Of a stretch of DNA of 62,504 nucleotides, positions 11,099-62,504 are shown piece after piece. The position numbers and the translations under genes were made by a program. Within the stretch, counting starts at the first letter, position 1; each line of letters opens with the position of its first letter. The notes under the pieces were generated by a model. That model was not told the origin of the DNA. It saw only the letters and a program-made list of their open reading frames with translations, and did not search any database. The DNA comes from Gammaproteobacteria bacterium (GTDB lineage: Bacteria > Pseudomonadota > Gammaproteobacteria > Natronospirales > JAJUFS01), in contig JAJUFS010000003.1 in assembly GCA_029263725.1 (NCBI GenBank), positions 1 through 62,504 on the forward strand, in the 5' to 3' direction.

Positions 11099-11386
11099 TT
11101 CCAATTCTCCTGAAATACCGTGCCTCTGTTGGATGCATGAGCGGCAGCAGTGGTTTATGCGCCCGCAGCGCTTGAAATCGAAAACTTGGATGTTAAAGTA
11201 GGCGCCGCACGAAAAGGCAAACCCGTCCGAAAGGCGGGCACGCAAAGTCACCGGTCTAAGGGGTGCAAGCCCTATGACAGCGGGATTACCGAAGCAGCCC
11301 CCTCATGCTGGCGCTTTCCCCCTTTGGCCAGCGCGTTTCGGTTCCCCCGCCCGTTGTCAGAAGCTTGTACCCCTTTTTATTTCCCG

Positions 11387-53707: not shown

Positions 53708-54511
53708 TTACAGGACCAGTTCGGTCAACGGTTCTTCCTGCGGAGCCGCCGCTTCCTTCTTAGGCCGCTTTCTCAGCGTACGATCAGAAGCTCTTTTCAC
53801 TTGTGCCAGCGCCTTTTTCGCCGCCTCGCCTTCGACGAGGTCACGCTTCAGCACCTCTGTACGGATAAGCTCTTCCACCTCTTCAGTTTCGATGCGCATA
53901 TCCGGGTTCATTCGCCGGATCTCCCGGCGGACGAGGCTTGTCACGGCATCGGATTGCAGGATAGCCGCGACCGTGAACTTGTTCAGCACGCTGGCGCGAT
54001 TCTGATACTCACGGATCAGATTTTTCAGCAGGCCCTCCCGGGACAGCAGGAGCAGGAGGCTCTTGTGCTCCGTGGAGCGAGCGTTCATTTCGAGAATGTT
54101 GAACTTGCAAAGCAGGCTGTAGGAAACCGGCTTCTCGAACTTGAGCGCATAGACCTCCCAGTCGATGCCGTTCGTGAGCACCACCCATTGAATTCCCTCG
54201 CTCACGCCGTAACTGACCGCCTGGCGAAGATGGTTGTCCTTCAGGTTGAGGCCGACGGCCTTCACCTCGATCAGGAGCTTGACCTTGTCGTCGAACTTGA
54301 TGGCAAGATCGCAAAAGGTCTTCCTGATCGCATATTCTCCCGTCACCTCCGCGTACTTGTCGAAGCCGAAAAGCTCGGCAAGCATGTCGGTCACGATGGT
54401 GACCGTATCCGCCTCGTTGACGTCCCTGCGCCTGGCATCCTCGAGAACCTTCTGGAACACCGGAAGGGCCTTGGCAAAGCGCTGTTCCGCCTTCTTTGGA
54501 ATCTTGGACAT
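53708..54511 (-). CDS. Standalone HsdR_N-type PD-(D/E)xK nuclease-fold protein with helical C-terminal domain
   Basis: EADTVTIVTDMLAELFGF, CDLAIKF-(x9)-LLIEVK (D...ExK) and QAVSYG...WVVLTNGIDWEVY match the type I restriction HsdR N-terminal domain pattern. No helicase or methylase gene is adjacent. Confidence 0.7.
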   Translation of the reverse strand: MSKIPKKAEQRFAKALPVFQKVLEDARRRDVNEADTVTIVTDMLAELFGFDKYAEVTGEYAIRKTFCDLAIKFDDKVKLLIEVKAVGLNLKDNHLRQAVSYGVSEGIQWVVLTNGIDWEVYALKFEKPVSYSLLCKFNILEMNARSTEHKSLLLLLSREGLLKNLIREYQNRASVLNKFTVAAILQSDAVTSLVRREIRRMNPDMRIETEEVEELIRTEVLKRDLVEGEAAKKALAQVKRASDRTLRKRPKKEAAAPQEEPLTELVL

Positions 54512-54693
54512 GACTGCTCCCCTGGCATGACTGCCTGATCGAACACTTGCTCCAGCATGGAAGGCATCAAACGGCGCCGCCTTGAAAAGCGGTCTATTGG
54601 CAGGACTCAACCCTCAAGGAAGTATAGAAGAGGAAAGGGAAAGCTCAATGATGGAGAGCGCCTCGGTGGCTGAGACTCATGCGGGCTAGTGGA

Positions 54694-55188
54694 TCAATCG
54701 CCATTCTGCACGGAACGGGCGAAGTCCGGGCGGATGACGAAAACATGCAGCAGTGCGCCGTCCGGCTCACTTTGCACCCTAGTGAACCTGGCATCCTGCG
54801 CGGTAAGCGCGTTACCAACGGTGTCGGCCACCGCGTCCGGATTGGCTAGGTAAGCCGCGTCCATTACCAGCTCACACAGCGAGCGCGTACACTCCAGGGA
54901 CTTCAGCTCCGTCAGAACCACGGGCTCGATGAGCTCATCGTCCTTCGCCTTGCGCAACGCCTCCAGCACCACGCTTGTGAAGGCGTGATCGTTCCCCAGC
55001 GCTTCGCGCTCCTCCCGGAGAAACGACTGCATCATCCCGATCACGCTTCTACCCGCTCTTGGCGGCACCCGCTGCAGCGTTGCGGTCTGCTCCTGGCCCA
55101 GGCGTTCCTTGAATTCTTCAGGCATGTCAGCGCCGACCAGGACCGGCATCGAACAGACGAGCAACGGAAAAAAACGGCGCATCAGCAT
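54694..55188 (-). CDS. Exported hypothetical protein, family P1 (copy a)
   Basis: Signal peptide MLMRRFFPLLVCSMPVLVGA. C-terminal LKSLECTRSLCELVMD ... FVIRPDF is shared with 60637-61323. Confidence 0.55.
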   Translation of the reverse strand: MLMRRFFPLLVCSMPVLVGADMPEEFKERLGQEQTATLQRVPPRAGRSVIGMMQSFLREEREALGNDHAFTSVVLEALRKAKDDELIEPVVLTELKSLECTRSLCELVMDAAYLANPDAVADTVGNALTAQDARFTRVQSEPDGALLHVFVIRPDFARSVQNGD

Positions 55189-55337
55189 GTGTTTTCTGGG
55201 CTCCCCCGGGATTTTCAGCGCTGCGCGACACATGACAACATTGGCGGCCTGCATGGTCAACGGCTGAAAGGATCAGCGGCCGTCGGAACAGGGGCGCTGG
55301 ATTCCTATGCTGAACACATGGACACAAGGAGGCACGG

Positions 55338-55922
55338 ATGCCGTTTCTCGCCGTTCTTATTGCCGCGAACCTGGCCACCCATGACCCGGCCCAGGCGGCA
55401 CCTGTGTACATCACCAACGAGCGGGGCAGCGCGATTCTCTTCGCACCGCCGCCCGGCAGGACCGCGGAATATGTAAGGAACAGGCACGCGCTTCTTGAGG
55501 ATCTCGCGAATCGACAGCCGGCGGATGTCATCGAGGCGCAGGTGTCGCTGGCCGGCCTTCTTCCAGTCACAGAGCTGCCGGAGTTCGTGAAAGGCATCGA
55601 TCTGACCTTCCTCGTTCTCAACCTTGGCGGCGACCATCCTGGCGGGTTCCACTTTCGAGAGGGAGAGTCGTTGAATGAGGGAGTGTCCCGCTTGCTGGGA
55701 TACCACGACGATTTTCTGGAGTTCCGCGAGGAACCGCCGGCAATCCCGCAGGTGTTTGGCTTCCGTGTTCTTTCGACTGCCGAAGACCTCGTTGCCTTGC
55801 GGGACAATGAGCACGTGGGGTTGGTGGACCCTTTGTGGGACGAGTTTTCGGATGCCGCTGGAACAGACGTAAGGAAACTCGCGGCCCCGCTTCCTCTCCG
55901 TGATCAGGACGTCAATCGCTGA
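55338..55922 (+). CDS. Exported hypothetical protein, family P2 (copy a)
   Basis: Signal peptide. The blocks ITNERGSAILFAPPPG, YVRNRHALL and LVDPLWDEFSDAAGTDVRKLAAPLP are shared with 57797-58516. Confidence 0.6.
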   Translation: MPFLAVLIAANLATHDPAQAAPVYITNERGSAILFAPPPGRTAEYVRNRHALLEDLANRQPADVIEAQVSLAGLLPVTELPEFVKGIDLTFLVLNLGGDHPGGFHFREGESLNEGVSRLLGYHDDFLEFREEPPAIPQVFGFRVLSTAEDLVALRDNEHVGLVDPLWDEFSDAAGTDVRKLAAPLPLRDQDVNR

Positions 55923-55941
55923 CCTACAGCCGGTTCCATTT

Positions 55942-56667
55942 CTAGGGTGCGCGCTTGTATTGGGCCATCTGTTGCGCGATATCAGCTGAGAGCGCATGCA
56001 GATACTCGACGGCATTCTTCCCAATCTGCGCCGCATTTTCCTCGATGGCCTTTCGCGCTTGCGTCAGGTCCTGATCTCCGTCGTTCGAGTAGTCGATGCA
56101 GGTTTTGTATCGGGCCAGAACAAGTTGATCGATGATAGTCTCCACGCCGACATCACGTTGTCCGAGACCGCTCTCCATCAAGGCGATGGATTCTCGACGG
56201 GACTCGTTCGCGATTTCCTCTAGCAGCACGGCGCGTATGCGGCTGTATCGCGCACGCCAAGCGTCGTCCTTGTTGCGCAGGGCATAGATCCTGTCAGCCA
56301 GCCACAAGCGGGTTACGAGGTCGATCTCGTCAGAAAGCGTGGGTTTAATCGCGGTCAGGAACTCTGAGATCTTCGCTTTCTCGGCATCGGTGATGTCAGC
56401 AAAGTCATCACCAAAGGAGACATAGCCGCTTGTTGGGCAGTACCAAAGCCATCCAAACACAGCATGCGGCCAGAAAACGCCGTCGTACTTCGTCGGCCAG
56501 TTATAGATGTAACTGCCCCAGCTCGCCGGCGTTGGCACGTCGCACTCTGCGCCGGAAATCGGATCCACCACGGTGGTCTGATGCCAGGTCGTTGCTGAAG
56601 CCGTTGCGCCGGCGAACGCCAGAATCGCCAGACCGGTAACCAGGATGAATAGCCGCATGGTCTGCAT
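55942..56667 (-). CDS. Exported hypothetical protein (P3), Trp-rich N-terminal part and helical C-terminal part
   Basis: Signal peptide MQTMRLFILVTGLAILAFAGATASA. No recognisable family. Confidence 0.55.
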   Translation of the reverse strand: MQTMRLFILVTGLAILAFAGATASATTWHQTTVVDPISGAECDVPTPASWGSYIYNWPTKYDGVFWPHAVFGWLWYCPTSGYVSFGDDFADITDAEKAKISEFLTAIKPTLSDEIDLVTRLWLADRIYALRNKDDAWRARYSRIRAVLLEEIANESRRESIALMESGLGQRDVGVETIIDQLVLARYKTCIDYSNDGDQDLTQARKAIEENAAQIGKNAVEYLHALSADIAQQMAQYKRAP

Positions 56668-56950
56668 TCGCTCCCCCTCTTCTGTCATCGTGAGGCCCCG
56701 CCTGCGGCGCGTTGGCGCGGCATCGGCAGAGAATCGGAAACATCGCGGGCGCGAGACATCGCACCTCAGATGCAGCGTACGTCTCACAAAGCTTTTGCCG
56801 AGCGCTGTTTTCGGTGATTATTTAACACACGTAAGGTTGAAGGCCAGTGACCCGACGCCTTGGATACTGAACAACGAACGATAGGGGCTCAGGAAACGTC
56901 ACCGCTACAAAAGTGTGTCCCTGCGGCTTTCCTCTCCAGGAACGAGCAAG

Positions 56951-57514
56951 ATGAATGTGAAGCAACTCGCCTGGCTGGTCACCTCCATCATCCTTGCTGG
57001 CTGTTCCTACGTCGGCGTCGTCGCCACGGCTGATCCGCTCAAGATGCTTCATCAAGGTGAATCGATGCAGCAGGCGGGGCGTCACATTCCCGCGGAACAG
57101 CTGGGATTGAGAGCGCTCGAAAGGGGTGTCGAGCTTGGTGACAAACGAGCTCAGGCCAACGCGCATCGATACCTTGGCAACTTCTACAAAAGCAGGCTCT
57201 ACTTCGAGCGCGCGGACTGGTTCAGGAGCGTGGACCGGTTTGATCCAAGCTACGAATTGTCGAAGTCGCACTTCCAGCAGGCTGCTGCACTCTGGGAAGA
57301 GATCGGCGACGACTGGGGCGTTGCCGCAGAGTATTTCAACCTCGGAAACGTGGCCTCGCTCCAGGAGAACAGCGACGGCGCCTGCGATCTCTATAGCCGC
57401 TCGCTGGCGGCGTATGGCACGGCAACCTTCCAGGGCACGATCCATCCCTGGAGCCCCGGCCTATCCAGACTTCCCTTCAATGGTGCGAGCCTTCACCGAG
57501 CACGAAGGTTGTGA
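56951..57514 (+). CDS. TPR-like lipoprotein (P4); C-terminal ~20 aa probably altered by a +1 C frameshift
   Basis: Lipobox LAGC and TPR-like helices (AHRYLGNFYKS, AEYFNLGNVA). Relative to the duplicate at 61879, the run at 57454-57457 has 4 C rather than 3. Confidence 0.6.
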   Translation: MNVKQLAWLVTSIILAGCSYVGVVATADPLKMLHQGESMQQAGRHIPAEQLGLRALERGVELGDKRAQANAHRYLGNFYKSRLYFERADWFRSVDRFDPSYELSKSHFQQAAALWEEIGDDWGVAAEYFNLGNVASLQENSDGACDLYSRSLAAYGTATFQGTIHPWSPGLSRLPFNGASLHRARRL

Positions 57515-57693
57515 GGACTTCGACTAGCCACCCGACGGCTTGAGCCCGCTCGCCGCATTGACGAACCGCTGGCCGAGATCCGCCAGCCTTCCCGCAAGCT
57601 CCGCCTTCGCCGCTTCCTGGCCCATCCGGTTCATGGACAGCGGCGAGCTCAACGACTCCAACCGCTGCTCCAACGCAGCCAGCTCCTCCTTCG
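57420..57693. repeat. Direct repeat copy 1 (274 nt), about 97 percent identical to 61879-62151
   Basis: Aligned by eye. The differences are one C indel and a few substitutions until the last ~20 nt. Confidence 0.9.
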
Positions 57694-57700
57694 TTACTCT
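57524..57700 (-). pseudogene. 3' remnant (about 58 codons) of a paralog of the 61982-62350 gene
   Basis: Minus-strand translation gives RVTKEELAALEQRLESLSSPLSMNRMGQEAAKAELAGRLADLGQRFVNAASGLKPSGG. An in-frame TGA lies immediately upstream and there is no start codon. Confidence 0.7.
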
Positions 57701-57796
57701 TCAGGCCCAGAAGAGTTCGAAACCCGGGATAAGAGCGTTTCCTCGTCGGCGAAATCATTCCATACAGGCGTCAGTATTTCATCAAAGGAGATCGAA

Positions 57797-58516
57797 ATGC
57801 TGATCGCTACATTCCTTATAGGAGCTGCTCTGGCAGCCGAACCATCCGCTTTGAATGCCTCTCCCTCAAAAATTACAAATCCACGCGGTACTGCCATCCT
57901 ATTTACTCCTCCGAAGGGGCAAGTAGAGGCGTACATCAAGAACCGGCACGCCCTTATTGGCCACTTATCTCGCGAATACCCTCGCCAGAGGTTCGAAGCC
58001 CAGGTCTCTTTCTGGAGATACCTCCCGGCTTTTCAGCTTCCGCAGTTATTGGAGGAGATGGAAGTACGGGTTATATCGCTAGACTTCGGATGGGACGGAC
58101 AAGGCGGAGGGTTCGCCGTCGAAGGCAACGAGCCATTGGAGGAGTCTCTGGAAACACTTCATAGATATCACGGAGAGTTCCTCGGCCATCTCCATGAAAC
58201 GGTCTCTTTGATTGAGGAAGAGACCAGCCGCCCGGATAAACGGCCGGGCGACGAGCAGCGCCTGGCTGAGCATCTTGATCATATCCACTCACTTTCTGCC
58301 GCGTACCAGGAACATGGGGTCCTCCTGGTAGGAATGAAGGTTACTGGCAGGCCCGAAGACCTGGTAGCGCTTATCAACAAAGAACCCGTGCGGCTTGTTG
58401 ATCCTTTGTGGGACGAGTTCTCGGATGCGTCAGGGGCCGAAGTGAAAAAGCTTTCTGCCCCTATTCCTCCGGAACAAGGACCAATCTCTGCAAGGGAAGG
58501 AGCCCCCGATGACTAA
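57797..58516 (+). CDS. Exported hypothetical protein, family P2 (copy b)
   Basis: AAAGGAG RBS and a signal peptide. Shares the ITNPRGTAILFTPPKG, YIKNRHALI and LVDPLWDEFSDASGAEVKKLSAPIP blocks with copy a and carries an internal ~45-aa insertion. Confidence 0.65.
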   Translation: MLIATFLIGAALAAEPSALNASPSKITNPRGTAILFTPPKGQVEAYIKNRHALIGHLSREYPRQRFEAQVSFWRYLPAFQLPQLLEEMEVRVISLDFGWDGQGGGFAVEGNEPLEESLETLHRYHGEFLGHLHETVSLIEEETSRPDKRPGDEQRLAEHLDHIHSLSAAYQEHGVLLVGMKVTGRPEDLVALINKEPVRLVDPLWDEFSDASGAEVKKLSAPIPPEQGPISAREGAPDD

Positions 58517-58567
58517 CAGACCTGACAGCGCGCTGGGAACGGTTTTTACTTGCAAGTGCCTTCAGAG

Positions 58568-58607
58568 TCAGGTCTTGCAACATAGCATGCTGCAATTCAA
58601 GATCTGA
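58568..58607. repeat. Palindromic element, copy 1 (40 nt)
   Basis: TCAGGTCTTGCA-ACATAGCATGCTGCAA-TTCAAGATCTGA, with 10 of 12 arm positions complementary. Confidence 0.85.
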
Positions 58608-60232
58608 CCCCAAGGCCGGCGCTCGTTCTCAACCTGACTAAATCTACGCCGAGCGCCAAGAAGAGACATCAAGAACGTCAGCAGCCAGGCGAGCGCGCCA
58701 CCACCGGAACCACCACCTGCCGCATCGGCCTGCTCCGCATTCCCGCTGGCGTCACCCGTTCCGCCGGTATCGTCATCGCCGTCGCCAGCACCCGCATCAT
58801 CAGAGCCTTCGTCCGCGCCGTCACTGGCAGCGTCGTTGTCCGCTTCCGTAACACCAGGATCGTTTCCTCCATCCCCGGGGTTCGTGTCGTCGTCTTCGTT
58901 CGCGTCATCCGAGCCATTACTATCGTCACCCTCGTTCTCGTCCTCGTCGCCGGCGGGATCGTCGAAATTTTCATCGTTCTCAAGGCCTGCCTCGGCTATC
59001 AACGCCGACGTTTCGTACCACAGCACACGCGCTGGAGCGCCTTCCGAGAAACTCATCGCCAGCGCCTGGGCGGAGATCGCGGAGTCCCAATAGACGTACG
59101 ACAAGTTTCCTTCCACATGCTGTGCAAATTGCGTCCATTCGCCAGCTTCGTCTTTCAAGAACGCGTAGATCGCACCGGTTTCGTGATTCTCGCCCGCAAG
59201 CACCAAGCCATCCTCGATATCGACCGTCACGCCGAAATTGGCGTGTGCATTGCCATCGTTCGGCGCATTCAAGCGCGCACGCTGCACCCAAGCATCGGGA
59301 TCGCGCTCGAAAAAGTAAGCAACGCCTTCGGCGCGCGGTCGGTCGCCGATGTTCTCGCCCGGCGCACCCAGTACCAGCACGTCGCCTTCAATCGCCACAG
59401 TCGCCGCCCCGCCAAGTTCGACCGTATCGGCAAGTAGCCAACCGGAAGCGCCGTACTCGTAGATATAGCCGTTGCCGTTTGCCGTGAACGCAATACGGTC
59501 GTCATCAATGGCGCTGTCGATCACATCTAGGCCGCTGCCATCTTCGCCCATGAAGGTGCGCGTCCACGTCCAGTTGCCCGTGCCATCCCGTTCGTAAAGA
59601 TACGCACGTCGAACGTCGGCAGCGGAGGATGTCACCAGTATGCGGTCACCACTGACAGCCACTTCTGTGCCGAAGTAGCCTTCCTCGAGCGGTGTTGGCG
59701 CATGGAGAACGGCGCTGTGCCGCCAATCGCCATCGGATCTATCGCGCTCGAAAACATGCACAAGGCCGGCCTCATAGAGGCCGTCGACACCAGCCCGCCT
59801 GTCCGCGACCGCAATGACGTTACCATCGATACTTACCGGCTCGCCGAACCTGCCGGTTTCGTACGCGGGTGGCCTCAGTGTCGCGAGATGATCAAGATCG
59901 CCATCCGCGAGCCGGAACACATAGACTGCCGGTTCGTCGGACGTAACGGCGAGCAGGCTTCCATCGAGATCAATCGCGCGACCGAAATGCATGTCGTCGT
60001 CCTGGTTGTTTGCATCGCTACCGGGACGATAAAGTGTGTTGAGCTCCGCCGCGGTCGCGGATGCACTGGCGAAGGTGGCTATTGCGGTGACCACCACGAG
60101 CATGACAAGAAAGAAGACGTGCGCCACGTCACGACAACCGATCGAGACGTGAAAGCTCCTTTGCACCTCGTCAAGTTCGTGAATTGCCGCCGCAGTGGGA
60201 ATGATCGAAGAAGAACTGGAATGAATGCGCAT
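58568..60232 (-). CDS. FG-GAP-like beta-propeller protein with acidic low-complexity linker and GlyGly-CTERM-type tail
   Basis: Repeated (F/Y)FG...V.(I/L)DG...(L/I)(A/V)V blades (HFGRAIDLDGSLLAV, RFGEPVSIDGNVIAV, YFGTEVAVSGDRILV, NFGVTVDIEDGLVLA). A D/E/N/G-rich tract of about 100 aa. Then GGGSGGG-ALAWLLTFLMSLLGA-RRR, followed by 24 extra codons. Start is uncertain (ATG at 60232, or GTG at 60127 just before the signal-like helix). Confidence 0.7.
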   Translation of the reverse strand: MRIHSSSSSIIPTAAAIHELDEVQRSFHVSIGCRDVAHVFFLVMLVVVTAIATFASASATAAELNTLYRPGSDANNQDDDMHFGRAIDLDGSLLAVTSDEPAVYVFRLADGDLDHLATLRPPAYETGRFGEPVSIDGNVIAVADRRAGVDGLYEAGLVHVFERDRSDGDWRHSAVLHAPTPLEEGYFGTEVAVSGDRILVTSSAADVRRAYLYERDGTGNWTWTRTFMGEDGSGLDVIDSAIDDDRIAFTANGNGYIYEYGASGWLLADTVELGGAATVAIEGDVLVLGAPGENIGDRPRAEGVAYFFERDPDAWVQRARLNAPNDGNAHANFGVTVDIEDGLVLAGENHETGAIYAFLKDEAGEWTQFAQHVEGNLSYVYWDSAISAQALAMSFSEGAPARVLWYETSALIAEAGLENDENFDDPAGDEDENEGDDSNGSDDANEDDDTNPGDGGNDPGVTEADNDAASDGADEGSDDAGAGDGDDDTGGTGDASGNAEQADAAGGGSGGGALAWLLTFLMSLLGARRRFSQVENERRPWGQILNCSMLCCKT

Positions 60233-60365
60233 CTGCCATCCTCCCCTGTGTAACATCAGGCCGCGCAGTCGAAAACCCGGAAAGGAAAGCACGTCGCGCC
60301 GCTGGTGCCGTGGCTTGATCTTGAAATCGACGCTAGGGACGCGGCAAACACGCTACAAGACGTGA

Positions 60366-60545
60366 ATGCCCGTGAAGAAATACACCTATCCGAGACAAGC
60401 GTTCCCTCGCACACCCAGCTCTAGGAATGAGTTCGGGAAGAGACTTAAGGAAATTCGCGAGGAACGGCCCTACAGGCACGAAGGATTGGCAGAGGCGGCG
60501 GAATGCATGTGTGACGCTATCCGTGCCTATATGGTCAGGTCCTGA
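60366..60545 (+). pseudogene. 59-codon remnant resembling the N-terminus of an XRE-family HTH protein, ending inside palindrome copy 2
   Basis: EFGKRLKEIREER...GLAEAA resembles the HTH_3 helix 1-2 consensus, but the recognition helix is missing. The stop codon (60543-60545) lies in the left arm of the palindrome. Confidence 0.4.
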
Positions 60546-60574
60546 AACATAACATGCTGCAATTCAAGACCTGA
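60535..60574. repeat. Palindromic element, copy 2 (40 nt)
   Basis: TCAGGTCCTGAA-ACATAACATGCTGCAA-TTCAAGACCTGA, with 11 of 12 arm positions complementary. Confidence 0.85.
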
Positions 60575-60636
60575 GCCCGAATCGCCGCTCGTCAGGCCGC
60601 CAAGACCGCCAGACTGCAGTCGAAGTATCGGGCGTA

Positions 60637-61323
60637 TCACTCGAAAAAATCTCGTCTGATAAGGTACCAACTCCATAACCTGGGGTCGTTAGGATTGGCG
60701 GCGTTCAAGGTCATTACGTAGTCGTCGTCAGCCGCTCGTATCTCTCGACTAAGCACTGAAATGGTGACAGCGAGATCGGCGACCATCTCCTTGTCGATCA
60801 GAACTTCGCATAAAGTCTCTGAGCATCGCAGGCCGCGTATAGCGTGCGCTATCGCCGGATCAACCATGCTGCCCTCGACGATTCGCTCTATATGGCGAAC
60901 GAGCGCAACCGGCAGTTCAGCATCTTGGCTCCTTTGCTCGATGTCCCTGCTTATTCTTTCTTCGAGCTGAAGCATGGTCTCTCGCGGCCGATTACCAACC
61001 TGGAGGCCAAGTTGCTCCGCCGTGAGACGGGGCACATCGAGCGCAGGATAATCAGCGACACCATCAGAAGAGCGTCTTCCTATCCCGCTTACGCTGTCGC
61101 CATTTTTCCGCGTTACAGCTGCCCCAGAAGGAGTAAAACTATACGGTTGCTCTTCCCGTACAGCGACGGAATTAAGCTCTCGTCGAGCCGGCGGGTTCGC
61201 AGTTCCAACCTCTTCTGCCCCCCTCAATTCAGGTCCAGCATCCCGAAACGAGAACGACTTTAGAAGAGTAAGAGTCAGAATGCCTGCGAGCAGGACAACG
61301 GGGACTAGCAGCTTGGCTTTCAC
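60637..61323 (-). CDS. Exported hypothetical protein, family P1 (copy b)
   Basis: A GTG start gives a GTGA overlap with the stop of the upstream 115-aa gene. N-terminal TM/signal KLLVPVVLLAGILTLTLL. C-terminal IRGLRCSETLCEVLID ... YLIRRDFF is homologous to 54694-55188. Confidence 0.55.
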   Translation of the reverse strand: MKAKLLVPVVLLAGILTLTLLKSFSFRDAGPELRGAEEVGTANPPARRELNSVAVREEQPYSFTPSGAAVTRKNGDSVSGIGRRSSDGVADYPALDVPRLTAEQLGLQVGNRPRETMLQLEERISRDIEQRSQDAELPVALVRHIERIVEGSMVDPAIAHAIRGLRCSETLCEVLIDKEMVADLAVTISVLSREIRAADDDYVMTLNAANPNDPRLWSWYLIRRDFFE

Positions 61324-61667
61324 TGTTGAGACTGAGGTGGGCAAACGTCGATATTGTTGCAGGCATTCCCGCCGCCGAATCCGAAAGTACTTTGATGCCA
61401 CGTCCCGAAGCTTGTGGGCGCCAGAGAACCGCCACCTATATATGCGCCAGTACTGGAGTTGAACACGCTGTAATCAACCACATAGCCGCCACTATTTATC
61501 CAAGCGACGACGGTTTCTGTTCCACTACGTCCTTCTCGCCAGTTAGTGTAGGTCCCGTAGCCATAACTTTCGCCCGTCGAACGGTAGGCGTCCCATCCGG
61601 CGATCACTATGGCTGAGAATCCAAGAAGGGTTATCCAGAGCAAGATTCGAGAAGATACCGCTTTCAT
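61320..61667 (-). CDS. Small exported Gly/Tyr/Thr-rich protein (115 aa), candidate secreted toxin or bacteriocin-like peptide
   Basis: Signal/TM MKAVSSRILLWITLLGFSAIVIAGW. The mature ~90 aa are rich in G, Y, T, S and W, with a C-terminal GGGNACNNIDVCPP Cys pair. Confidence 0.55.
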   Translation of the reverse strand: MKAVSSRILLWITLLGFSAIVIAGWDAYRSTGESYGYGTYTNWREGRSGTETVVAWINSGGYVVDYSVFNSSTGAYIGGGSLAPTSFGTWHQSTFGFGGGNACNNIDVCPPQSQQ

Positions 61668-61829
61668 CCACCGCCCCCCCTGTCATAAGCTTTTGTAGAA
61701 ATATAGCCCATATTCCGGGTATTTCCACTCTTCACTGCTTATCCGTCTACTCGCCTTCCGCATATCGCAAGGCCGCTCAGGGGGGCTCTGACCTTCGCGT
61801 CATGTCCAGCTCAATGGAGCCTTCGGGGG

Positions 61830-61867
61830 TCAGGTTTTGAAACAACATGCTGCAATTCAAGACCTGA
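61830..61867. repeat. Palindromic element, copy 3 (38 nt)
   Basis: TCAGGTTTTGAA-ACAACATGCTGCAA-TTCAAGACCTGA, with 11 of 12 arm positions complementary. Shares the 3' flank CCCCAAG with copy 1. Confidence 0.85.
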
Positions 61868-61878
61868 CCCCAAGTCCC

Positions 61879-61985
61879 CGGCAACCTTCCAGGGCACGAT
61901 CCATCCCTGGAGCCCGGCCTATCCAGACTTCCCTTCAATGGTGCGAGCCTTCGCCGAGCACGAAGGTTGTGAGGAATTCGACTAG
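61879..61985 (+). pseudogene. 3' fragment (about 34 codons) of a P4-type lipoprotein gene
   Basis: Reads TFQGTIHPWSPAYPDFPSMVRAFAEHEGCEEFD-stop in one frame. There is no upstream coding sequence because the fragment abuts the palindrome. Confidence 0.6.
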
Positions 61986-62151
61986 CCACCCGACGGCTTG
62001 AGCCCGCTCGCCGCATTGACGAACCGCTGGCCGAGATCCGCCAGCCTTCCCGCAAGCTCCACCTTCGCCGCTTCCTGGCCCATCCGGTTCATGGACAGCG
62101 GCGAGCTCAACGACTCCAACCGCTGCTCCAACCCCGCCAGCGCCTCCTTCG
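61879..62151. repeat. Direct repeat copy 2 (273 nt)
   Basis: See 57420-57693. It begins 11 nt after palindrome copy 3. Confidence 0.9.
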
Positions 62152-62350
62152 AACCCTGTGGATACCGCTCCACCCAGGACCGTAACAGGTCCAGGTACTC
62201 TCGCGTGGTGTTCAGGGTTTCCGCGAAATCCGGCCCCGGGTCGCCGACTCGCAGCACGCGCATCGCGTCCGAAATCAGGAGAACGGGGATCCAGAGTTGA
62301 TCGACGTAGGCGTAGTGGGCTGGGAGCTGGCTCTTCCTTGAACCTGTCAT
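61982..62350 (-). CDS. Hypothetical helical protein (122 aa)
   Basis: ATG preceded by an AGGAG RBS. Its stop overlaps the plus-strand TAG within a shared CTAG. No recognisable family. Confidence 0.6.
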   Translation of the reverse strand: MTGSRKSQLPAHYAYVDQLWIPVLLISDAMRVLRVGDPGPDFAETLNTTREYLDLLRSWVERYPQGSKEALAGLEQRLESLSSPLSMNRMGQEAAKVELAGRLADLGQRFVNAASGLKPSGG

Positions 62351-62364
62351 TTGCAACTCCTAAT

Positions 62365-62504
62365 TGACCTTTCCCCCGCTTTTCGGTCCATTCGCGATGT
62401 GGGGTTTCCCTTTAGACTAGCGCCTTAGGGAGGTCCCGATGAAGCGCAAACGATTCACAGAAGAACAGATCATCAATGTCCTGAAGGAGTACGAGGCCGG
62501 CGCC
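62365..62504 (+). mobile_element. Left end of an IS3-family (IS407-group) insertion sequence, continuing beyond the window
   Basis: A terminal TGACCTTTCCCCC resembles IS407-group inverted repeats (TGACCTGCCCCC). An orfA start follows 74 nt downstream. Confidence 0.75.
62439..62504 (+). CDS. IS3-family transposase OrfA, N-terminal 22 codons (3' end lies outside the window)
   Basis: GGGAGG RBS. MKRKRFTEEQIINVLKEYEAGA matches the IS3/IS407 OrfA N-terminal HTH consensus. Confidence 0.8.
   Translation, partial: MKRKRFTEEQIINVLKEYEAGA

Follow-up and report, generated by a model that had tools for sequence, protein, structure and literature searches.

Palindromic units in a gammaproteobacterial contig as probable miniature derivatives of TIRtron elements

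TIRtrons have been described as genes for TIRYTs, proteins resembling the REP-associated tyrosine transposases (RAYTs; REP, repetitive extragenic palindrome), lying between long terminal inverted repeats (TIRs) that share the sequence GGGGWSAS, with TIR repeats occurring as single copies, dimers or clusters (PMC3733652). They were named in 2013 (PMC3733652) and classified in 2018 (PMC6006769), when TIRYTs were equated with TnpA_Y1 subclass 2.1, characterized by Bac_DnaA_C or helix-turn-helix (HTH) C-terminal domains; in that study, no REP-like sequences were found beside subclass 2.1 genes (Quentin et al. 2018, PMC6006769). REPs are placed mostly downstream of coding regions by Di Nocera, De Gregorio & Rocco (2013, PMC3733652). 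Here we analyse the first 62,504 nt of a gammaproteobacterial contig (JAJUFS010000003.1, assembly GCA_029263725.1; hereafter the window), which carries three copies of a short palindromic element. It is very probable that these copies are small, transposase-less and partly decayed TIR dimers, that is, miniature TIRtron derivatives presumably moved by a TIRYT. The feature is real and exemplifies a known but obscure kind, being ordinary mobile-element debris in a horizontally acquired segment.

A preliminary description of the window, made from its sequence, reported three copies on one strand and none elsewhere, and both statements hold. Exact and mismatch-tolerant scans of the window recover the three copies in a single orientation, where they had been placed, and no further ones; the expected number of matches in dinucleotide-preserving shuffles of the window sequence is 0, and a profile built from 84 family arms yields, at E < 1, the six arms of the three copies and nothing else. 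The bounds and the 12-nt arms proposed earlier have to be revised, however. Because the element ends in relatives are GGGG...CCCC, the units are extended by 4 nt on each side (Table 1), taking the form GGGGTCAGGTCTTGAA...TTCAAGACCTGACCCC, and their arms are asymmetric, with a right arm of 26 nt (CATGCTGCAATTCAAGAYCTGACCCC) and a left arm of only 16 nt. Similarly, the flank CCCCAAG noted for copies 1 and 3 is there to the letter, but its CCCC consists of element bases and only AAG is flank. All three copies lie in a segment of 55–59% GC, the rest of the window being ~65% GC.

The window copies share a form of their own, in which the left arm has been cut to 16 nt (a loss of 8–10 nt) and is followed by ACA(TA)R, and this form was not seen in any other locus found. 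Because the derived left-arm loss is common to all three, a single founder is indicated, amplified either within this lineage or within whichever organism donated the low-GC island. The outer ends are degenerate in copies 1 and 2 (AGAG and ATGG instead of GGGG, and GCCC instead of CCCC), and these two copies are probably immobile and inert as a result of the mutated ends. The GGGGWSAS match, GGGGTCAG, is found in both arms of copy 3 and in the right arm of copy 1 (in right arms as its reverse complement), with degenerate counterparts in copy 2 (GGGCTCAG) and in the left arm of copy 1 (AGAGTCAG), whose right and left arms score 25.0 and 13.9 bits, respectively, against the family arm profile. 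Folded as single-stranded DNA, the three copies give stem energies between -8.2 and -14.7 kcal/mol (z from -2.0 to -4.7), the best being that of copy 3, with 16 bp and 94% complementarity (-14.7 kcal/mol, z = -4.7).

The three copies belong to a widespread family. A scan for the conserved 22-mer, with one genome per GTDB species, identified five loci in three metagenome-assembled genomes (MAGs; Betaproteobacteria, Acidobacteriota and Vicinamibacterales), at one or two exact matches per MAG and with no match in the source genome, and the outer 20-mer is present in at least 120 metagenome contigs from many soils and sediments. The MAG units extend further at both ends, reading GGGGTCAGGTCTTGAA, a variable core and then CATGCTGCAATTCAAGAYCTGACCCC. 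Among all loci there are 83 short units (79 unique), hairpins of 33–260 nt. Arm positions 1–16 are near-invariant (positions 1–8 are at least 96% conserved in the 84 family arms), and positions 17–26 are variable yet complementary between both arms. This co-variation is supported by the pairing of the arms over 62 units, in which 88.6% of cells are complementary as against at most 49% in slid controls, and by the 93 cells changed in both arms, compared with 40 in shuffles (0/500 shuffles reach the observed number). No target-site duplication accompanies 78 of the 83 units (neighbouring direct repeats of at least 2 nt are absent), no strong consensus was found for a target motif around them, and their flanks show a mild excess of complementarity. 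A long open reading frame (ORF) stops within 30 nt of 49 of 53 metagenome units, compared with 37% at random sites, a statistic that is inflated because each arm carries a TGA; 30% of the metagenome units are spanned by a long ORF, compared with 88% of random sites. This fits an intergenic placement near gene ends. No match to the family was obtained in a plasmid BLAST with a 178-nt member or in a scan of viral contigs, and a full-text literature search for the arm sequences found none.

The coding partner of these ends is a Y1 transposase, whose gene they flank in inverted orientation at nine independent loci (five found through the arms and four chosen by protein). Arms 570–1062 nt apart were found at seven loci, two of which are deleted versions, while the other five (L059, L071, L075, L096 and L119; 936–1062 nt) are full-length elements with one intact ORF of 286–323 aa. 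The element ORFs match Pfam Y1_Tnp with 25.6–40.5 bits, above the cut-off of 23, and NCBIfam NF047646 (REP_Tyr_transpos, REP-associated tyrosine transposase) with 76.6, 78.8 and 54.5 bits, all below the cut-off of 80; weak matches to HTH_38, HTH_23 and HTH_28 at residues ~245–272 correspond to a C-terminal HTH. Three motifs do not vary within the family: HUH (NHYHL), that of the catalytic Tyr (RYVVLNPV) and WSS. A PDB search with a single transposase sequence returned nothing, a profile being required, and the best match of the family profile is E. coli TnpA_REP (4ER8). The AlphaFold2 model (predicted local distance difference test score 77) likewise matches 4er8_A best (E 2.5e-8, template modelling score 0.77), followed by the TnpA proteins of ISDra2 and IS608. 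On the basis of its architecture, the transposase may be assigned to the subclass 2.1 of Quentin et al.

The association is also supported from the protein side. At least 8000 homologues were obtained at E ≤ 1e-10 in a protein search, the named ones among the matches listed being RayT, REP-associated tyrosine transposase and putative transposase. Four homologues picked by protein alone (P0021, P0024, P0099 and P0062, at loci L130, L131, L133 and L134), with 60–64% identity to the query, are flanked by the arms in 4/4 cases, one arm lying ~80–115 nt upstream of the gene start and the other coinciding with the stop or directly following it. Compensatory arm changes are found at two of these loci (TCTGGAA/TTCCAGA and CTTGCC/GGCAAG), and one of the four has a 67-nt mini-unit 3 kb away. 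The earlier suggestion of a small mobile hairpin of the REP/RAYT kind with an associated Y1 transposase is therefore supported; the transposase gene lies between the same ends at other loci, and none is found in the window.

Some members of the family have features of their own. In 18 of 151 flanks (0.9 expected; units of L006–L125), the tetranucleotide CTAG, which these contigs seldom contain, is found no more than 14 nt beyond the element ends, most often ~3 nt out as CCCCnnnCTAG. It could reflect a preference for certain targets or an extension of the element under weak conservation. In the orthologous loci L089 (2027–2080) and L101 (1832–1885), which are ~88% identical with indels beside the element, the 54-nt unit is identical at 52/54 positions and is thus better conserved than its surroundings. 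A 178-nt unit (L005, 4100–4277) has 45-nt TIRs, each with two AGAyCTTGAAT sub-repeats, and two or three right arms are arrayed in tandem in L058 (7316–7418) and L029 (6063–6108).

The proposed parent of the units is a TIRtron, an insertion sequence (IS)-like element of ~1 kb, in which TIRs of 20–30 bp (GGGGTCAGGTCTTGAATTGC...) surround a single TIRYT gene. TIRYTs are HUH/Y1 tyrosine transposases that resemble RAYTs and carry an HTH at the C-terminus (TnpA_Y1 subclass 2.1). By analogy with TnpA_REP and IS608, both arms of a unit would pair on single-stranded DNA to form a hairpin with a GGGG/CCCC foot, where the TIRYT, acting in trans, would nick and rejoin the strand by means of the HUH-bound metal and the catalytic tyrosine. 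The unit would then move without leaving a target-site duplication. Copies come to rest in small gaps between genes, close downstream of coding regions, and it is because of this placement that neighbouring ORFs run into the TGA codons of the arms. The data show that the units belong to the family, that the transposase is linked to them, that the arms co-vary and that targets are not duplicated, whereas the strand-transfer chemistry and the supply in trans are inferred from the same analogy, as would be any remaining mobility of the three copies.

Several observations weigh against this interpretation. No TIRYT gene was found in the window, either by tblastn or by a profile search of its six-frame ORFs. 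Nor was an empty site found for any copy: 10/10 related contigs carry the element, as do all Logan, ENA and JGI contigs of this locus, and junction BLAST among 137 loci gave only self matches and one untidy paralogue in L061. The mutated outer ends of copies 1 and 2 and the shortened left arm make activity doubtful. Furthermore, the copies are clustered within 3.3 kb and have similar short flanks (GTGCCT, GCCTTC, AAG and CGCTCGT), and therefore local duplication, not transposition, could have produced some of them. In the literature searched, TIRYTs appear only in PMC3733652 and PMC6006769, whose accessible text contains no transposition, cleavage or binding experiment.

Table 1. Positions of the palindromic units, the adjoining reading frames and the direct repeats in the window.
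Feature	Position	Strand	Description
Copy 1	58564..58611	+	48-nt TIR dimer; left arm AGAGTCAGGTCTTGCA (16 nt, degenerate), spacer ACATAG, right arm CATGCTGCAATTCAAGATCTGACCCC (26 nt)
Copy 2	60531..60578	+	48-nt TIR dimer, both outer ends degenerate (ATGG..., ...GCCC)
Copy 3	61826..61871	+	46 nt, best preserved: GGGGTCAGGTTTTGAA-ACAA-CATGCTGCAATTCAAGACCTGACCCC; ends 7 nt before repeat R2
FG-GAP repeat gene	58568..60292	-	likely start at the MRIHSSS codon, 60232, as in P0121
XRE-like ORF	60366..60545	+	59 codons, stops inside copy 2
Direct repeat R1	57420..57693	+	3' end of TPR lipoprotein gene and 3' part of 124-aa gene
Direct repeat R2	61879..62151	+	273 bp, ~97% identical to R1; left edge 7 nt from copy 3

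According to the preliminary description, every copy coincides with a gene truncation. It is literally true that the FG-GAP ORF stops inside copy 1 and the 59-codon ORF inside copy 2, and the junction at copy 3 is genuine, but the FG-GAP gene is complete, and the XRE-like ORF scores below threshold and no homologue of it was found, so that the truncation claim is largely unsupported. That ORFs end in the element is for the most part a mechanical outcome of the TGA present in every arm and of the position of the elements in small gaps between genes.

Copy 1 is located between the FG-GAP gene and a convergent 239-aa gene (stop 58516), and the last 13–14 codons and the stop of the FG-GAP ORF are read from it. 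The Gly-rich/hydrophobic/RRR anchor at the C-terminus of the FG-GAP protein is intact and is followed by 24 more codons, 13–14 of them from the element, and in a 59% identical homologue without the element the protein ends 7 residues after the RRRR cluster, an ordinary terminator following. Since the anchor is kept and the element-free homologue ends so close to the Arg cluster, copy 1 lengthens the ORF and does not cut it, contrary to what had been supposed. Precise excision of the 48 nt in silico lets the protein end in ...ENERRP, followed by a stop. A 13-nt tandem duplication, GACCCCAAGGCCG, across the right end of copy 1 (window 58605–58618) is polymorphic among samples, being present in most related contigs (L126, L128 and, through P0121, L139–L144), while the window, L127 and L129 lack it; the duplication shifts the reading frame of the tail and gives rise to a 594-aa variant. 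The excision result and the frameshifted 594-aa variants therefore indicate that the tail is not conserved coding sequence. No NCBIfam model matches the FG-GAP protein at E ≤ 0.01. Its C-terminus (window 58612–58690, minus strand; GGGSGGGALAWLLTFLMSLLGARRR) resembles a C-terminal sorting or anchor signal.

Copy 2 is flanked by two genes of the minus strand, being placed 59 nt downstream of where a 254-aa gene stops and ~300 nt upstream of the FG-GAP start. The XRE-like ORF matches Pfam HTH_31 with 15.5 bits (cut-off 27), rising to 19.8 bits, still below, when the element is removed in frame. No homologue was found among 5.8 billion proteins, whether for the ORF as it stands or joined across the element, and the ORF is not a called gene in five related contigs. 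Most likely it represents either the relic of a gene or a spurious ORF.

The junction at copy 3 is the sole genuine discontinuity at a copy. As had been described, a 273-bp repeat starts 11 nt past the end first given for copy 3, which is 7 nt past its true end. The repeats R1 and R2 bracket a 4.2-kb low-GC segment with all three copies and the 239-aa, FG-GAP, 254-aa and 115-aa genes; at each repeat one neighbouring gene is whole and one is cut, and the other repeat edge (57693/62151) carries no element. The segment is found at 99.5% identity in contigs of at least six other samples. That these contigs terminate within the repeats suggested a circular 4.46-kb element, an idea that was rejected since one end of each contig matches R2 and the other R1, the arrangement seen in the chromosome. 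For the TPR and 124-aa neighbours, look-ups of the exact proteins returned no record.

Over window positions 54000–62400 the GC content falls from ~65% to 55–59%, and the segment comprises small genes, several with N-termini resembling secretion signals and almost none with a Pfam match, among them a paralogous pair (55338–55922 and 57797–58516), with an HsdR_N-like gene (53708–54610) at the left edge. At 62365–62504 begins an IS3-family element, identified by eye, whose orfA (from 62441, MKRKRFTEEQIINVLKEYEAGA...) runs off the window. Elsewhere, at 11206–11293 on the plus strand, lies a full-length c-di-GMP-I riboswitch aptamer (80.1 bits, gathering score 35).

The coincidence of copy 3 with the repeat edge raises the question of whether the hairpins were active in the rearrangements that built the low-GC island, acting as breakpoints through slippage induced by the hairpins or through one-ended or aberrant TIRYT events, so that the coincidence would be causal. 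This is consistent with the 7 nt that separate copy 3 from a 273-bp repeat bracketing 4.2 kb, with the polymorphic 13-nt duplication over the right end of copy 1, with the short flank motifs common to the copies and with their joint location in the segment of 55–59% GC. However, only one junction is at an element, copies 1 and 2 occupy ordinary intergenic gaps, and metagenome elements lie mostly at gene ends with no sign of rearrangement, and the case is a single one without a control; this explanation is unlikely. We consider equally improbable a broader proposal, in which the GGGGTCAGGTCTTGAA-ended TIRtrons would form one pan-phylum IS family, absent from the literature searched, with a hybrid mechanism whereby the C-terminal HTH reads the near-invariant outer 16 bp as duplex and the HUH/Tyr site cuts the hairpin foot, the 33–260 nt derivatives serving as breakpoints that shuffle gene modules in variable islands. 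The junction beside copy 3 and the duplication at the end of copy 1 are possible traces of such breakpoint activity.

Alternatively, the hairpins may now serve the host as RNA structures at 3' ends (mRNA stabilisers or barriers to transcription or translation), as reported for REPs. Every copy does lie a short way downstream of a minus-strand gene (one 110 nt past the 124-aa gene, another 59 nt past the 254-aa gene, and one overlapping the stop of the FG-GAP gene), a placement that agrees with that of REPs (Di Nocera et al., PMC3733652); the stems are stable, and L089 and L101 keep the element while their flanks diverge and acquire indels. This role is nevertheless quite unlikely for the window copies, since there is no U-tract, the stems of copies 1 and 2 are weakened, and the near-invariance of the outer 16 nt across phyla fits recognition by a protein better than a generic RNA stem. 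A search of Rfam with the window copies gave nothing at the gathering threshold and, at E ≤ 1, one chance match to a miRNA hairpin (21.7 bits vs 79). An intrinsic terminator is likewise rejected, in agreement with the preliminary description, as there is no T-tract and 0 of 6 terminator-like sites in 57500–62400 overlap a copy. It is hardly conceivable that the units are site-specific recombination sites (attC-like or dif-like) at the boundaries of gene cassettes, as had also been suggested; although they are imperfect palindromes with a variable centre, set among small genes whose function is unknown, in DNA of low GC content, their ends (GGGGTCAG...CTGACCCC) are without RYYYAAC/GTTRRRY cores, the genes between the copies are not uniformly oriented as cassettes relative to them, and in every case where a coding partner was identified it is a Y1 transposase gene with these ends around it. 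No integrase, tyrosine recombinase or serine recombinase was seen among the 17 window ORFs, a minority of the total, that were scanned against Pfam.

Taken as miniature TIRtron derivatives, the three copies connect a concrete end sequence that is simple to search for with a transposase family of very large size, and reveal many miniature hairpin derivatives in soil and sediment metagenomes. Hairpins of 46–54 nt and matched transposases such as P0021 provide defined substrates for a first biochemical test. For annotation, such hairpins account for odd C-terminal extensions, frameshift variants and short 'orphan' ORFs beside them.

Comparison with known systems separates these units from several better-known ones. 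Elements of the IS200/IS605 type (IS608, ISDra2) resemble the full-length elements in their HUH/Y1 domain, which gives the second-best structural matches, in being small and single-gene, and in making no target-site duplication. Their ends, however, are differing subterminal hairpins without TIRs, whereas here 20–30 bp inverted repeats of each other are found; the terminal inverted repeats rule out an IS200/IS605-type element, including the IS200/IS605-type target considered in the preliminary description. Like classical miniature inverted-repeat transposable elements, which derive from DDE elements, the units are short and non-coding, with the two TIRs of an autonomous element and an interior that is mostly lost; this class is excluded because, despite the TIRs, 78/83 units are without target-site duplication and the partner is a tyrosine HUH nuclease and not a DDE transposase.

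The REP and REPIN systems with their RAYTs (E. coli TnpA_REP, 4ER8; Pseudomonas REPINs) are closer. The transposase is nearest to TnpA_REP in both fold and sequence, its gene lies between inverted repeat copies, short intergenic hairpin doublets occur near the 3' ends of genes, and no target duplication is made. In contrast to REPs, a single arm is not palindromic (TCAGGTCTTGA would leave a 1-nt loop), so that only the arm pair forms a hairpin, and neither a GTAG nor a CGTC tag is present at either end; the missing GTAG tag and the lack of self-palindromic arms rule out a classical REP. The copy number is also low where it is visible (three in the window, all within 3.3 kb, and 1–2 exact 22-mer matches in the MAGs), the ends are common to several phyla while REP sequences are lineage-specific, and the transposase, below the NCBIfam RAYT cut-off, has an extra C-terminal HTH.

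The closest counterpart is the TIRtron/TIRYT system. No occurrence of the TIR sequence GGGGTCAGGTCTTGAATTGC came to light in the literature searched and, unlike in described TIRtrons, the outer 16 nt are near-invariant across phyla and among transposases only 39–60% identical, there is a rich series of hairpin derivatives of 33–260 nt, and the window copies are asymmetric, decayed and without a nearby transposase gene. Both have in common, however, a RAYT-like Y1 transposase of ~280–320 aa whose C-terminus carries an HTH, long TIRs beginning with GGGGWSAS (here GGGGTCAG), a scattering of TIR copies that stand alone, in dimers or in clusters, and a presence in Acidobacteria and other phyla.

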